Translations under genes and position numbers: made by a program
Assembly (NCBI RefSeq): GCF_050320075.1
Contig: NZ_CP190018.1
Source: Escherichia coli
GTDB taxonomy: Bacteria; Pseudomonadota; Gammaproteobacteria; Enterobacterales; Enterobacteriaceae
DNA: 64,000 nt
Direction: 5' to 3' (one strand)
In this document: one piece after another, positions 3,054 to 64,000 of the stretch
Position numbering within the stretch: position 1 is the first letter of the stretch
How the letters are laid out: each line of letters begins with the position of its first letter
The notes under the pieces: model-generated
Told to the model about the DNA's origin: nothing
Databases searched by the model: none
What the model saw: only the letters and a program-made list of their open reading frames with translations

Positions 3054-4460
3054 TTACTTGGAATTACTGTTGTTTTCGAACTGCTGCGTTAAGTAGCTGC
3101 TGGTGCTGTTTAACGAGGTCATTAAAACGTCCAGTTGGGTAAATTGTTCTTTGTAGCGCGCGACCTGCGCATCAATGCGATCGCTGGCGGCGTTGTAGTC
3201 TTTAGTTAACTTATTCAGGGTCTTACTAACGCCATCGGTAGCGGCTTTAATAATGCCTGTTGTCGAAAGCCAACTGGTCAGGTTGCTGCCGATGGTGGTT
3301 GTGATGCCGGTTTTTTTACCATCGCCAACAATCAATGCACCTACGCCGCTGGCATCTTTTTTCAATGCAGCGGTGAGTTTGTCGGCATCCAGCTCCAGTT
3401 TGCCATCGCTGGGATCGGTCGTGATACCAATCTGCGCCAGCGTTTTATAGTTGGAAGAACTGACGGTATTACTCAGCATCGATTTCAACTGCGTCTGAAT
3501 CGTCCGCAGCGTGGAGTCGCCGAGCAGTGCGCCATTGCTAGAACTCTGGCTATCAGCTCCCGCATCTACGGCGGTGTATTTGGTCAGGCTGCTGAAGGTA
3601 TCTATTAGCGAGTTATAGGCATTCACCCAGTCTTTAATCGCCGTTTGCGCTTTGGAGGTGTCCTGAGTGATGGTTAGCGTCTGGTTGCCCGTGGTGACAT
3701 CGTTCAGGTTCAGGGTGATGTTTTCCAGCGCGTCGCTGATGGTGTTGCTGCTGTTCTCAATGGCGACGTTGTTGACCGTCAGCTGCGCATTCTGGGCGGC
3801 GACCGAGACCTCCATACCGTTGCTACTGGCACTGGCGTCATAGCCCATAAAACTTTGTAGCGCATCATCACCGCTAACCGAGAGCGTCATCGCATTATCA
3901 AGGCCGGTGTCATTCGATGTGACTGACAGACGATATTCACCGTTACCCACGTTAATGATGCTTGCGCTTACACCTGCTTTTGCGTTGTTGATGGCATCAC
4001 GGATCCCGCTTAACGACGAGTTAGCCGCGCTGATATCAATGGTGATCGGCTCTTTGTCGCCGCCTTGTTGAATGGTGAGTTTGCTGTCGCTGGTGGCGAT
4101 CGCCGTTTTCGTATCGTCTCTGGTGGTGCGCGTGGTCAGGGTTTGCGCCTGCGCCAGATGGGTGACGCTGATGGTGTATTTCCCGGCGATGGCGTTACCC
4201 GCAGTGGTGGCACTGAACGCGGTGGTGCTGCTGGTAGTGCTGGTGGCGGAAAAAAGATCGGCTTTAGACAATGCAGTATTGGCGGTCTGGAAAGTCGTCA
4301 GCGCGCTTTTCAGCGTACCGTAGGCGCTAAGTTTAGCGGTAAACGACGATTGCTGATTTGAAATAGGGGTTAGCGTCGCTTTTTGCGCGGCGGTGAGGCT
4401 ATCAAGGATTGAACTTAAATCCAGGCCTGACCCGACTCCCAGCGATGAAATACTTGCCAT
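3054..4460 (-). CDS. fliD: flagellar filament cap protein FliD
   Basis: 468-aa Ser/Thr-rich ORF, divergent from fliC. Confidence 0.95.
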   Translation of the reverse strand: MASISSLGVGSGLDLSSILDSLTAAQKATLTPISNQQSSFTAKLSAYGTLKSALTTFQTANTALSKADLFSATSTTSSTTAFSATTAGNAIAGKYTISVTHLAQAQTLTTRTTRDDTKTAIATSDSKLTIQQGGDKEPITIDISAANSSLSGIRDAINNAKAGVSASIINVGNGEYRLSVTSNDTGLDNAMTLSVSGDDALQSFMGYDASASSNGMEVSVAAQNAQLTVNNVAIENSSNTISDALENITLNLNDVTTGNQTLTITQDTSKAQTAIKDWVNAYNSLIDTFSSLTKYTAVDAGADSQSSSNGALLGDSTLRTIQTQLKSMLSNTVSSSNYKTLAQIGITTDPSDGKLELDADKLTAALKKDASGVGALIVGDGKKTGITTTIGSNLTSWLSTTGIIKAATDGVSKTLNKLTKDYNAASDRIDAQVARYKEQFTQLDVLMTSLNSTSSYLTQQFENNSNSK

Positions 4461-59128: not shown

Positions 59129-59180
59129 CATCAAGGTCTAAATGCACTACATGGGCACCTAAACATATACATGTGATGTT

Positions 59181-59203
59181 GAGGTGTTAGAAAGGGGGCT
59201 GTT
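59181..59203 (-). terminator. hairpin downstream of the 306-aa minus-strand gene
   Basis: AGGGGGCTGTTCAGCCCCT inverted repeat immediately after the stop of 59219..60139. Confidence 0.35.
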
Positions 59204-59218
59204 CAGCCCCTGATAGAC

Positions 59219-60139
59219 TTAGTAATTATCCCTGACAACTTCATCATATCTTTCAATGAAGGTTAGTTGTTTATTACTTCCATTATAACTATCAACCCAT
59301 TTGTCTACAGCTTCATCGAATAGAAATAAAAAATCCGTATAATTTATATACACTACATTATCATAATATTGGGTTGGGTGACCTCTTTTACATACAGCAA
59401 TACTAAGACGTCTTTCTTTACCCTGAGTAACTTTGTGTGAATTAAGATTAGTCATGTGAAGCAATGAGTTCCTTAATTCATATAATTCGTCGGAAGTTAC
59501 TCCAAGTTTTTGTATATCTGAGTATGTATCTAACCAATTTTGAAAGACTCTTCTTTTGTTTCCAAACTCAATATAAGCTATAGTATCAATAAATGACATT
59601 AATAGCTTGAAGCTTGACAAGTAATGTTTTTTGTTAAACAGAAGCTTTATTGGTTCCATATGGTCATCATTAAGAAGTTCCTTAATGTGAAAACCATCAT
59701 CTTTCATATACTTATCAAGATAGTCTGGCAAGTCTTTTACACCTTCAATGTGATAGTTAGGTGTGTGCTTATTCCTTAATTGCTCTGACATTGATAACTG
59801 AATATCATATTGTAATTTGCCTTTAACAACGGGGGTGACTATAGCTAAAGGGTTTTCAGGTGCATTTTGAGCTTCTAATGCTAATTCAAACGGAGCAAAA
59901 GGATTACCAATCCGCAAATTTGCATTATATCTTTCAAGTGTCAATTTGTCATTTTCTAAAACAGAAGGGTGTATCCCATAAAATAAACGACAAGAAGCTA
60001 AGTCAATCTCCAAATTCCGCTTTAAAAAATCTAATTTTTGCGCATCATCGCCATCATGTTCGTGAGGTACTATTCCGGCATGTGTGATATGAACTCCATC
60101 AGGACTAAAGCAAAATATGTTGTAGATAATCTCTTTCAT
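59219..60139 (-). CDS. hypothetical protein, 306 aa, with RNxxxH (HEPN-like) motif; candidate Abi-type RNase (tentative)
   Basis: Long intact ORF in AT-rich DNA at the island edge; motif R223-N-S-L-L-H228 fits the HEPN R-x4-6-H consensus; no other recognisable domain. Confidence 0.65.
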   Translation of the reverse strand: MKEIIYNIFCFSPDGVHITHAGIVPHEHDGDDAQKLDFLKRNLEIDLASCRLFYGIHPSVLENDKLTLERYNANLRIGNPFAPFELALEAQNAPENPLAIVTPVVKGKLQYDIQLSMSEQLRNKHTPNYHIEGVKDLPDYLDKYMKDDGFHIKELLNDDHMEPIKLLFNKKHYLSSFKLLMSFIDTIAYIEFGNKRRVFQNWLDTYSDIQKLGVTSDELYELRNSLLHMTNLNSHKVTQGKERRLSIAVCKRGHPTQYYDNVVYINYTDFLFLFDEAVDKWVDSYNGSNKQLTFIERYDEVVRDNY

Positions 60140-61249
60140 ACCATTCTAACCTTCAGTGAAAATAAAGTTTTAACTATCATTAGATTATGAACAATCACAA
60201 TTGGCCTGTAAATAACAGGGCATAAACAGGTTCGTTTAGCTTGATTTTATCACTATAACTGTCTGATTTAACGGTAACTCACCAAGTATACACACAGTAA
60301 TTACACAATCCTGTTATTATGTAACTTATTGAAATATATAAATAATTTTTACATTCTTTGTTTGGGGTAAGCTGTGTAATGTTAGTCGTCCCTCTCCAGA
60401 CACTATATATAGTGCTATATACAGGACTATATAACGATATATAGATGTTTGGTCACATGGTATAACTATCAAACCACTTAACGATTTCCTACGTGAAAGT
60501 TAGAAAGTGATAGTTATAGTTACCTTGTCAAATCTTCGTAGTCCCTTCTTAAAAAATCGTGAAAGGTAATCTTGTTATCTATACAGAATCTACGTAGATG
60601 CTTCTTAGTGCGCAAAACAGCTATTATGTTAAAAACGCACTGTATACGTATCAGTACTGATTTATAAGGGTTTTGTGTATTGGCTGATAAGAGGCTATAC
60701 AGCACCTTGAGAGCATGTCTTCTAAGTCATTGACATATAAGGTCACAGAAGTTTGTAGCTGTTACAGAGAAAACTGGATAGGACTTCACAGAACTATAAA
60801 ATGTTACAGCTATTGATAGGTGAAATCTTCTTGATAGATGCTTTGAAGTGTGGTGAAGGCTTTTTGAGGTGGGGCTAAACAGATATCATGAAGAAAGTCA
60901 ATAGTTGATTCGGTTTATCGAATAAACCTCATAGATATTTTAAAATTCTGCAAAGGGGGTCACATAGCTGGTGTGACGGGTACTTAGCAGCTACAGACAT
61001 CTATCAGATATTTTTGAAGATTTTTAGAAGGGGAATTTGAAGAGGGGCTACTACGATTTTATAAAAATTTTCAGATTCTGAAAAGTTACTGTACAGAATA
61101 TGTACAGATATCTTTAAAGTATCTGTAAAAACTTTTAAGATAAAAGATAGATATCCCAGAAAGGATATCCGTTTAGAAAACCTATTAAGTATCTCTTAAA
61201 AGAGAGTAAACCTTGTCAAGAGTGATTGCAATAAAAATTTTTATTTCTT
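60140..61249. other. 1.1 kb AT-rich ORF-free region with clustered short repeats and palindromes (divergent control region, origin or ncRNA locus)
   Basis: No ORF above 61 aa; recurring TACAG/GATAG-containing motifs; palindrome GTCACAtagctggTGTGAC at ~60959..60977; CTATATATAG-type repeats at ~60400..60445. Confidence 0.5.
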
Positions 61250-61912
61250 ATGTCAATTGAGTGTATTTTAATCGGGAAACATCATGGGGGTTCTGATTAC
61301 TGGAGAACTCCATTTTTGTTATTTAAGAACTTACACCGTGAATTTATTTTCAGTCTGGATGGTGCTGCAACTAAGCACGATACGTTATTACCCCGCTTTA
61401 CGGATGATATTCACAATCAGTCATGGGATGGTGAACGGGTATTCTGTAACCCACCATACAGCGACACTAAAACATTCCTCGTAAAAGCGTCTGAGGCAGA
61501 TTTATCGGTATTCCTGATACCGTACCGACCCCAAACCATATACTGGCTTAAGCACATCTTCACAAACCCGCTTTGCCATGAAATCCGTATTCTTCATCGT
61601 GCAGTTAAATACCTTCCACCAGCAGGGCATAACAGGCTTACTATTAGGTCGCCGTTTCCAAGTGCAGTCGTTGTTTTTAAAAAAGAACCACGCAGGCATG
61701 AAATTACGCAGATGGTTTGCTGTGCTGATACATTGCTACCGTTAACCATCATTAACAGAGGAGGCTTGAGAGGAAGGCCCACCATTTACCCACCTGAGAC
61801 GCTCGACAGCTTCATAAAACTATACAGGCAAGGCAAACCCATTAAGTGCATTGCAGATGCTCTCAGAATGCCTCTGAGCACGTCATACAGGATTGCTCAA
61901 AGGTTGAGCTAG
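61250..61912 (+). CDS. phage Dam-like DNA N6-adenine methyltransferase with C-terminal HTH-like segment
   Basis: DYWRTPFLLF ... FSLDGAA ... CNPPYSD (motif IV N/DPPY) typical of phage N6-A MTases; C-terminal IKCIADALRMPLSTSYRIAQRL looks helix-turn-helix; start codon uncertain. Confidence 0.6.
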   Translation: MSIECILIGKHHGGSDYWRTPFLLFKNLHREFIFSLDGAATKHDTLLPRFTDDIHNQSWDGERVFCNPPYSDTKTFLVKASEADLSVFLIPYRPQTIYWLKHIFTNPLCHEIRILHRAVKYLPPAGHNRLTIRSPFPSAVVVFKKEPRRHEITQMVCCADTLLPLTIINRGGLRGRPTIYPPETLDSFIKLYRQGKPIKCIADALRMPLSTSYRIAQRLS

Positions 61913-62276
61913 AATTCTCATAAATATGGTCATTTACAAGACAGGTGATTTAGATATTAAGAGGTATCCCTGTGAACAATAAATGACCAATCAGTAATTA
62001 TCCTGTGAAATAATTGTTGCAATTTATAATCACACATGGTATAGTTTCATAGTGGACTGATAAAAAAGTTCATGTCTTGAAGTGGTAACACTTGGGGAGG
62101 TGTCAGATGATTGACGTATATTAACCTCTCATTCATGGTAATACCTCAGCGTTTTAATCATCGTACTGTTTCAGGCATGGACTTCTTTATCAGTCCATCA
62201 ATCCCCCAGATATTTTAATCACACAGGCTAATCGGTTTTATCCGGTTGGCCTTTTCACGTATGAGGTAATTTATGA

Positions 62277-63245
62277 ATGAAAAAAGAAACTAATGCTTTT
62301 ATTATGGTAGATAAACGAGTTGCACAATTCCCTAAAACATTAAAGCCAATTGACCGCTTGGTATATTTCACTATGCTGGATGGTGCTGATTATTACGAAT
62401 CTAAGTTCGGGAGATACGCACCAAGTATTGACTATTTGATGGTTATGTCTGGTGCTACACGTAATACAGTTATTGATTCACTTAAGAGACTTGAGTCACA
62501 CAGACTTATCGAAAAGACCAATGTAAAGGGTCAGCAAAGTATTTTTAAAGTATTCACGTTGGATGAGCGTCCAGAGGTCTTATCAGAACCTACCCTTGAT
62601 GAGCGTCGTAGAGCTAAATTATCAGGTCAACCAGAATCTGACAGTAACCCAACCAAAAATTGGTTACCTACCCAACCAGAATTTGGTTACCTACCTAACC
62701 AGAATTTGGTTACATGTAATACTGAATATAAAGACAAAAATATAAATACTGAAGAAGAAAGACTAAAAGGGAACTTTGAAGAAGAATCTCTTAAGAAGGG
62801 AGCTTCGCTCTGTGATTCACATGAATGTGATATTAAAGAAGATGACTTTCTTTCTTTGGATGAATTAAATGATTTTCTCTCTATGAATGAATCTGGCCTT
62901 GATAGTGAAGCTACTAAAGAGGCTGTTAAAAAGGAAGATAAAATCTCTGATGTGAATATCGATAGTGACCATAAAAACACACAGTGCCCCGCCACTGATG
63001 ATGAGATGGACCCCTTCGATGATTACCTTGATGAAGAGTCAGAGCGTGAAAAAGCCATTAAGAGGGTAGAGAAGAAAAAGAGATTCGAGCTTGCAAGACA
63101 AAAGAACAAAGTATCGGGTTTAGACCCATTCGATGACAGTGACGATGATGACTTTTCTTTCACACCAAGAAAGAAACAAACTCAGGATGACAAGAAGCAA
63201 AAAATTAAACCGAAGATGTATTTTGCTGGTGGAGGTATGCGCTAA
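62277..63245 (+). CDS. winged-helix DNA-binding protein with long acidic low-complexity tail (replication-initiator/regulator-like)
   Basis: N-terminal ~95 aa resemble phage Rep/replisome-organiser winged helix; C-terminal two-thirds D/E/K-rich with a twice-repeated DPFDD motif. Confidence 0.55.
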   Translation: MKKETNAFIMVDKRVAQFPKTLKPIDRLVYFTMLDGADYYESKFGRYAPSIDYLMVMSGATRNTVIDSLKRLESHRLIEKTNVKGQQSIFKVFTLDERPEVLSEPTLDERRRAKLSGQPESDSNPTKNWLPTQPEFGYLPNQNLVTCNTEYKDKNINTEEERLKGNFEEESLKKGASLCDSHECDIKEDDFLSLDELNDFLSMNESGLDSEATKEAVKKEDKISDVNIDSDHKNTQCPATDDEMDPFDDYLDEESEREKAIKRVEKKKRFELARQKNKVSGLDPFDDSDDDDFSFTPRKKQTQDDKKQKIKPKMYFAGGGMR

Positions 63246-63541
63246 TGAAAGAATATCACGGTGAAAAGAGATACAAAGATTACCTGTTAAAGCGTTATAG
63301 CATTTCTCGTGAAGGCCACTTAATGAAGGATACTCACGGGGAAGTTTACCGGATTAGACCGAAGAAAGAAGGGAGGGATTATTTCTTTTACGATGGTGTG
63401 ACAGATTTAAAGATTGATGCTTTGAAGTTTGCGGCGCTGTATCATTATGATATCTGGGACTCAGTCCACCAGCTACGATTAAAAGACGGTGACCCCGGTA
63501 ATCTGAGGGCCACCAATATTATCAAGGGAAAGTGCCGGTAA
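63245..63541 (+). CDS. small HNH-like endonuclease-domain protein (tentative)
   Basis: 98-aa ORF translationally coupled (ATGA overlap) to the upstream gene; VHQLRLKDGDPGNLRATNI resembles the HNH_3 H-x-DG-x-NL-x-T pattern. Confidence 0.4.
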   Translation: MKEYHGEKRYKDYLLKRYSISREGHLMKDTHGEVYRIRPKKEGRDYFFYDGVTDLKIDALKFAALYHYDIWDSVHQLRLKDGDPGNLRATNIIKGKCR

Positions 63542-63799
63542 GTCCACCAGCTATTTATTTATTGAAATCTCTATCTCAACACGAAGAAGTTTAAGTCGAA
63601 TTGTAAGCTTTGTCTTTTTTGTAATGACTCGATTCATAACGCAAAACACCAATAGCACAATAAATACCGCAAAGCCCAACGAGCTAAAACGATGAGATTC
63701 AATAATTGCTGTGAAAAAATCATGCATTAATTTTCCTTTTGCGAAAGGAAACAGCACCTGTATCAGCCCCTATAACCATAATATCATGTAAATGAGATG

Positions 63800-63828
63800 T
63801 TGACAATATGTTAAATAAATGTTATGAT
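63800..63828 (+). promoter_or_regulatory. near-consensus sigma70 promoter
   Basis: TTGACA-N17-TATGAT followed by AAGGAG Shine-Dalgarno and ATG at 63866. Confidence 0.5.
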
Positions 63829-63865
63829 TGTAGTATGAGTAAGAGATTTAAGGAGATTTTTACAA

Positions 63866-64000
63866 TGACTCACACAGTTACGCGCCTTTTGCCAGAGGCA
63901 TTTGAACGACTGGCAGCAATCAAAGCCAAATATCCCGATATGAAGCACACAGCGCTTGTTGGAGAGCTTTTAAAAGAGTCGGTAACCCTGACCCCTTTCG
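63866..64000 (+). CDS. ribbon-helix-helix-like DNA-binding protein, 5' portion only (runs off window end)
   Basis: MTHTVTRLLPEAFERLAAIKAKYPDMKHTALVGELLKE has the beta-strand then helix pattern of RHH/CopG/antitoxin-type proteins; strong promoter and SD upstream. Confidence 0.4.

Follow-up and report, generated by a model that had tools for sequence, protein, structure and literature searches.

A putative orphan N6-adenine DNA methyltransferase joined to a resolvase-type helix-turn-helix in an Escherichia coli chromosomal island

The window analysed here, 64,000 nucleotides of the E. coli chromosome, has 100% identity to strain YZLc1-3; an annotated copy of the identical region is in NZ_CP123240. 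It includes the left part of a genomic island inserted in yecE; the whole island corresponds to L001 18933-31165, and in NZ_CP123240 the two halves of the split DUF72/yecE pseudogene flank it on both sides. The large open reading frames (ORFs) at 39-58 kb, upstream of the island, were considered as phage-like and rejected, as they are chromosomal genes: tar, tap, cheRBYZ, flhBAE, argS, torYZ and cmoAB. Genes of the island were assigned with Pfam and PHROG (Table 1), and the only virion genes recognisable among them are the tape-measure gene and the Dit-like tail gene. We focus on one gene of the early part of the island, which encodes a methyltransferase (MTase) joined to a helix-turn-helix (HTH).

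Table 1. Features of the locus, in window coordinates (aa, residues of the 220-aa protein)
Feature	Position	Strand	Remarks
Host island in yecE (DUF72), left 4.9 kb	59132..64000		~12.2 kb in total; ~7.4 kb lie past the window end
306-aa gene	59219-60139	-	Left edge of the island
AT-rich spacer	Between the 306-aa gene and the MTase-HTH gene		1.1 kb
Conserved non-coding region	60931..61249	.	Directly upstream of the MTase gene; candidate promoter/operator or origin
Palindrome ACAGATAtctttaaagTATCTGT	61103-61125		Short inverted repeat
Palindrome GATATCCcagaaaGGATATC	61150-61169		Short inverted repeat
Palindrome CTCTTAAAAGAG	61193-61204		Short inverted repeat
MTase-HTH fusion gene	61250..61912	+	220 aa; stop codon 61910-61912; from the ORF list
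Catalytic domain, aa 15-150	61292..61699	+	Minimal gamma-class-like Rossmann N6-adenine MTase, phage Dam family PF05869
Core motifs		+	WxTP aa 18-21; motif I-like FSLDGAA aa 34-40; motif IV NPPY aa 67-70 (61448-61459)
Beta-hairpin connector, aa 153-169	61706..61756	+	Subfamily-specific; ITQMVCCADTLLPLTII
Resolvase/invertase-type DNA-binding domain, aa 175-220	61772..61909	+
GRP minor-groove arm, aa 175-177	61772-61780	+	Followed by HTH helices aa 182-193, 198-205 and 209-219
O-like replication initiator	62277-63245	+	PHROG 270/428/678
98-aa ORF	After the initiator, within the window
Remainder of the island	Beyond the window end		In order: small ORFs, tape-measure gene, Dit-like tail gene, large serine recombinase (far end)

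The product of the fusion gene is 100% identical to the RefSeq CDS WP_000020969.1 in NZ_CP123240, which RefSeq already names 'DNA N-6-adenine-methyltransferase', and 119 full-length relatives of 220 aa are 89-99% identical to it (E. coli variants). A sequence-only reading of this DNA had quoted four peptides, all of which are present in the translation: DYWRTPFLLF (aa 16-25), FSLDGAA (aa 34-40), CNPPYSD (aa 66-72) and IKCIADALRMPLSTSYRIAQRL (aa 198-219). It had also called the start codon uncertain on account of a weak Shine-Dalgarno (SD) sequence. The poor SD was rightly noticed, and is in fact absent from this allele; the start itself is supported by allele alignment. The ATG at 61250 is the sole start codon that retains the conserved WxTP motif. 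In the alignment, its counterpart in divergent alleles is a GTG start with a GAGGGG SD sequence 9 nt ahead of it, which a 23-bp deletion has removed from the window's allele type. We found no convincing sigma-70 promoter directly upstream of 61250 in this allele. Expression of the window allele may be low or conditional.

We found that the N-terminal part of the protein matches several independent models of phage-type methyltransferases. The Pfam Dam family (PF05869) is matched with E = 3.1e-14 (53.4 bits against a gathering cut-off of 28.1), the alignment taking in only positions 9-83 of the 169 of the profile; PHROG_111 ('DNA methyltransferase') is matched with E = 2.4e-25 over aa 15-151, and the PADLOC oMTase (orphan methyltransferase) model with E = 1.3e-13 over aa 15-143. 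An exhaustive HMMER scan of 1.84 billion representatives yielded 2,456 relatives, nearly all of which are standalone, have 140-200 aa and match the query over its aa ~12-150. In an alignment of 77 family sequences, W18, T20, P21, F34, D37, A40, W59 and the N67-P68-P69 triplet are conserved in at least 90%, and position 70 is Y or F in every fusion member. The score against the NCBIfam equivalog phage_N6A_met (TIGR01712) is 37.5 bits, below its cut-off of 97.05, and on this profile evidence the protein is a divergent relative of the TIGR01712 group and not an equivalog. From this low score, and from a Pfam alignment confined to the N-terminal half of the model, we conclude that the core has diverged from canonical phage Dam in its C-terminal half. 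A PDB search by sequence, with the full protein as query, gave no solved relative; in a fold search the CcrM structure 6pbd appears, and the predicted structure has the class I Rossmann methyltransferase fold of N6-adenine DNA methyltransferases. We also considered kinship with the non-specific methyltransferases Hia5 and Hin1523, which was rejected, as those have DPPY before FxGxG and belong to a different class.

Family searches, structure prediction and fold search thus bear out the earlier assignment to the phage Dam-like N6-adenine methyltransferases. The Pfam search that the sequence-only reading had proposed was run, and the Dam, PHROG_111 and PADLOC matches extend far beyond the NPPY tetrapeptide; homology confined to it was the outcome that would have counted against that reading. 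Its estimate of an extension of ~100 aa does not hold: since the catalytic core reaches to about aa 150, the tail comprises ~70 aa.

The earlier description of the tail as HTH-like is confirmed and can be made more specific: it is an HTH_7 domain of the resolvase/invertase type, with a GRP arm. In the full protein, HTH_7 (PF02796) falls just under its cut-off of 23.8 bits (21.4 bits, E = 2.8e-4); with the tail scanned alone it rises above it (25.4 bits). The tails of all nine family members scanned match HTH_7 (best E = 1.2e-7), and the precomputed matches of Pfam list the HTH occasionally. A profile made from the nine tails detects the Sin/Bin3 resolvase 2r0q (1.3e-6), in an alignment that takes in the 'KGxxKGRPxxY' arm, as well as the gamma-delta resolvase 1res (1.5e-5) and the Tn3 resolvase 5cy1 (7.6e-5). 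The GRP arm and the three-helix bundle are homologous to resolvase DNA-binding domains, and the features that contact DNA are conserved in the tail (G175, R176, P177 and R214). The small serine recombinase of a sister island is 33% identical to it from GRP to YR. The serine-recombinase catalytic domain (PF00239) has no match in the protein, whose N-terminal 150 aa are methyltransferase.

AlphaFold2, run on the 77-sequence alignment, gave a model with a mean pLDDT of 90.9 and a pTM of 0.85, in which the Rossmann core is followed by an extra beta-hairpin and three helices. The strands of the connector are placed at aa 153-157 and 164-169 with a pLDDT of ~96, and core, hairpin and HTH are predicted to fold as one compact unit.

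Full-length relatives that share the fusion have 221-238 aa and form seven clusters at 50% identity (37-63% identical to the query), with fragments in addition; over about eight such clusters, the architecture is found at 36-63% identity. The full architecture was found in Erwinia typographi, Enterobacter sp. 10-1 and Pseudocitrobacter vendiensis, at 46-50% identity, in a cross-genus scan of one genome per species with a six-sequence alignment as query. An allele in another E. coli island, 62% identical, has the identical architecture. Only four residues are invariant throughout the fusion family: D160 and L165, both in the hairpin, G171 and G175. All four fall in the connector or at the beginning of the GRP arm. 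Within E. coli, the gene is present in 142 of 5,426 complete genomes, and is chromosomal in all of them; ECONIH2 (CP014667) and FDAARGOS_1256 (CP069451) are among the carriers. Among the 119 E. coli variants, the share of variable sites is 28% at aa 146-174, the lowest of the three segments, the core having 56% and the HTH 50%; dN/dS is 0.30 in the core and 0.13 in aa 146-220, which comprise linker and HTH (Nei-Gojobori method, seven alleles). By these substitution rates the fusion is under purifying selection, with connector and HTH more tightly constrained than the catalytic core. It is old, given identities of 36-63% across Enterobacterales, and by these comparisons it is genuine and not an artefact.

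Loss of the tail by frameshift was seen only in L045, among nine alleles for which the coding sequence was translated. In that allele (3722-4324), annotated as 'phage N-6-adenine-methyltransferase', the frameshift lies exactly at the GRP arm and leaves a 200-aa product without the HTH. We also observed that dS in the HTH-coding 3' end (61772-61909) is 0.067 versus 0.40 in the catalytic core, and that the L044 allele is a mosaic, its N-terminus coming from one allele type and the remainder from another. Because of this contrast and this mosaic, the alignments suggest either that recombination has had breakpoints within the gene or that the DNA of its 3' end is under additional constraint.

The non-coding region directly upstream of the gene (Table 1) is near-identical in six island alleles. 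The hexamer GATATC occurs 23 times in the window, and four of its sites (60882, 61107, 61150 and 61164) lie within 288 bp, against 19 in the other 63.7 kb. Taken alone, a CAGATATYTTT repeat is not significant, as 18 of 100 shuffles attain the five matches counted in the window; what stands out is the local GATATC cluster alone. Together with the palindromes, this cluster possibly represents an operator or iterons; a link between it and the HTH is something we infer only. A segment of ~170 bp (60931-61106) also turns up by itself in other E. coli genomes, where the match (82-89% identity) has no annotation beneath it, and in L039 it sits ~720 bp upstream of a divergent MTase allele; these matches mark it as a non-coding module conserved in the island family. 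Downstream, the 364-bp spacer just upstream of the initiator gene contains a 25-nt inverted repeat (62053-62197; 88% complementary, with a 95-nt loop), which has no Rfam match and may represent part of an origin or a structured leader. The flanking intergenic regions gave no Rfam match of note, and a known RNA was rejected.

The sequence-only reading had placed the gene on a mobile element. Mobility stands, as the host is a serine-recombinase island of ~12 kb in yecE; the element is neither a plasmid nor an intact phage. A plasmid or phage origin was rejected, as the locus has no megablast match in the plasmid and phage collections. In tblastn searches of the same collections we found only standalone cores of at most 39% identity, with no coverage beyond aa 166, and the tail alone had no significant tblastn match in phages. 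Sister islands with a shared backbone are found in mdtG (L037), near ymdF (L038 and L039) and near yciI (L045). The island in L038 is otherwise syntenic and lacks the MTase gene; by this comparison the fusion gene is a variable accessory gene with a fixed position at the early/replication end of the island. In L037 (16397-16948), L041 and L042, the gene next upstream of the fusion gene encodes a small, Mpi/invertase-like serine recombinase of 183 aa, where the window has 60543-60945; L038 has a related recombinase gene on the opposite strand. We looked for a remnant of such a gene in the 1.1-kb upstream spacer of the window and rejected it, as the MTase's own HTH is all that tblastn detects. 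A tyrosine integrase gene precedes the homologue in Enterobacter and Pseudocitrobacter, where the pair lies at the margin of a prophage-like element. From its gene content, the island family looks satellite-like or like a degraded prophage. In the literature searched, with incomplete coverage, we found no description of this island type, and nothing on the protein, its domain combination or its methylome.

By their sequences both domains of the window's protein are intact, and it is probably an orphan AdoMet-dependent m6A methyltransferase of the PF05869 family, with the C-terminal HTH as a built-in module for DNA recognition or anchoring. A recognition module is the most likely role of the tail because it is positioned where gamma-class methyltransferases such as M.TaqI carry their target-recognition domain, and PF05869 has none. 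In the mechanism that we propose, the hairpin, GRP arm and HTH would together be the enzyme's own recognition or anchoring module, and would raise its affinity or extend its site selectivity relative to the standalone relatives. Methylation would mark the DNA of island and host, and the mark would protect the element against restriction on entering a new host; it may also mark the control region of the island itself. Such a role would be the customary one among orphan methylases carried by temperate elements. Anti-restriction self-protection, site targeting and autoregulation, as originally suggested, are all plausible. Given that thousands of standalone family members work without an HTH, the tail should in principle be dispensable for catalysis.

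It is conceivable, if on balance unlikely, that the HTH is mainly a transcriptional regulator which binds the upstream palindromic operators and controls its own gene or the early/replication operon of the island, methylation being a separate activity; the protein would then be comparable to the HTH-bearing C5 methyltransferases M.SsoII, M.EcoRII and M.MspI. In favour of such a role are the density of GATATC sites and short palindromes just ahead of the gene (61100-61205) and the conservation of the upstream region among alleles; in addition, 61107-61249 is apparently missing where the MTase gene is absent (as we infer from a 32% coverage in two pieces and from L038), and the gene heads a rightward block that ends with the replication initiator. 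However, nothing links the HTH directly to these sites, which could equally be iterons for the O-like initiator or sites of the small serine recombinase, and the alleles in L039, L044 and L045 combine a near-identical HTH with unrelated upstream sequence. In Enterobacter and Pseudocitrobacter, moreover, the gene follows the integrase gene without a comparable intergenic region, and both the rigid packing of the predicted structure and the strong conservation of the connector point to a tail that takes part in catalysis and is not independent of it. Binding of the HTH to the upstream region may also be compatible with its being a recognition module, as the two roles are not exclusive of each other. 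A more pointed version of the same idea, to which we give little credence, is that the HTH limits a methyltransferase of low specificity to a few sites, such as the control region with its GATATC sites and palindromes or the replication origin. It would thereby act as a site-directed epigenetic writer and control the replication, excision or helper-dependent induction of a hitherto undescribed family of small serine-recombinase islands whose only tail genes are those for the tape measure and Dit.

The type of the tail raises the further question of whether the protein serves the recombinases of the island as an accessory or directionality factor, brought by its HTH to recombinase or att sites and possibly methylating them to gate excision or inversion. 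Such a function would fit a DNA-binding domain of the serine-recombinase type that is related to that of the sister islands' small recombinase, a host island mobilised by a large serine recombinase, and the adjacent integrase gene in other genera. Those integrases, however, are tyrosine and not serine recombinases; the large recombinase of the window's island lies ~10 kb away at the opposite end, and the small one is absent. HTH_7-like domains are also widespread in transposases, terminases and regulators, so the fold type implies no recombinase sites, and we regard this role as very improbable. Even less probable, in our judgement, is a restriction-modification pair in which the divergently oriented 306-aa gene encodes the nuclease. 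Restriction endonucleases often have no detectable homologues, and the 306-aa protein, encoded 1.1 kb from the MTase gene, matches nothing in Pfam, PHROGs, NCBIfam, PADLOC, the PDB or phage genomes. Nonetheless, the 306-aa gene is found, at 99% identity or more, in only 13 complete E. coli genomes, O157:H7 strains among them, versus the 142 that have the MTase gene, and for this reason the latter has no consistent restriction partner. The 306-aa gene does not accompany the MTase gene in sister islands or in other genera, the neighbours of the MTase gene differ among them, and no restriction enzyme is associated with it in the island. The 306-aa gene is possibly a cargo or defence gene. The earlier description of the methyltransferase as an orphan therefore stands, on the PADLOC oMTase match and on the rarity of its only uncharacterised neighbour.

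If the protein is a methyltransferase with its own recognition module, as we think probable, its enzyme class is ordinary and its conserved DNA-binding appendage uncommon. Site selection by the minimal phage Dam-type methyltransferases, which have no recognisable target-recognition domain, is poorly understood, and a conserved natural fusion to a sequence-specific HTH of the resolvase type offers a ready-made test of what an added module does to specificity or processivity; it mirrors the design principle of engineered tools for targeted methylation. An uncharacterised putative adenine methylase in ~2.6% of complete E. coli genomes is also relevant to the reading of methylomes. Should the enzyme methylate GATC like its relatives, the finding would be ordinary; should the tail confer site-directed methylation of the island's control region, its interest would rise.

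The closest known systems are the phage Dam-type methyltransferases (PF05869 / TIGR01712), of which T1 Dam and HP1 Dam are members. They share with the present protein the WxTP, D-x-A-A and NPPY motifs on a minimal Rossmann core of ~140 aa, an orphan status, and a location in the early or replication region of a temperate mobile element. The known members are standalone, with 140-190 aa and without a DNA-binding appendage, whereas the present protein adds a beta-hairpin and an HTH_7 domain. A further member, M.EcoVT2Dam of Stx2 phages, is reported to have GATC as its target (PMC6602927). The phage- and plasmid-encoded members that we found are at most ~39% identical to the query and none has the tail, and GATC specificity is not to be assumed for it. 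The gamma-class enzymes M.TaqI, M.BseCI and CamA, at 12-17% identity, have recognition domains of their own, which exceed 150 aa and are unrelated to HTH_7. For the tail, the nearest counterparts are the Hin and Gin invertases and the gamma-delta, Tn3 and Sin resolvases, with which it shares the GRP arm and a three-helix HTH with an S-T-x-Y-R recognition helix; the catalytic domain of these small serine recombinases is absent here, and the HTH is joined to a methyltransferase instead.

Methyltransferases with additional DNA-binding domains are known from other classes. M.SsoII, M.EcoRII and M.MspI are HTH-bearing C5 methyltransferases, the HTH of the M.SsoII/M.EcoRII type being N-terminal and autoregulatory, and CcrM has a C-terminal DNA-binding domain. 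The M.SsoII/M.EcoRII-type enzymes and CcrM differ from the present protein in methyltransferase class (C5 or beta-class N6A) and in the position or fold of the extra domain, and have no homology to it; what they have in common with it is the concept of an added DNA-binding module with an influence on targeting or expression.
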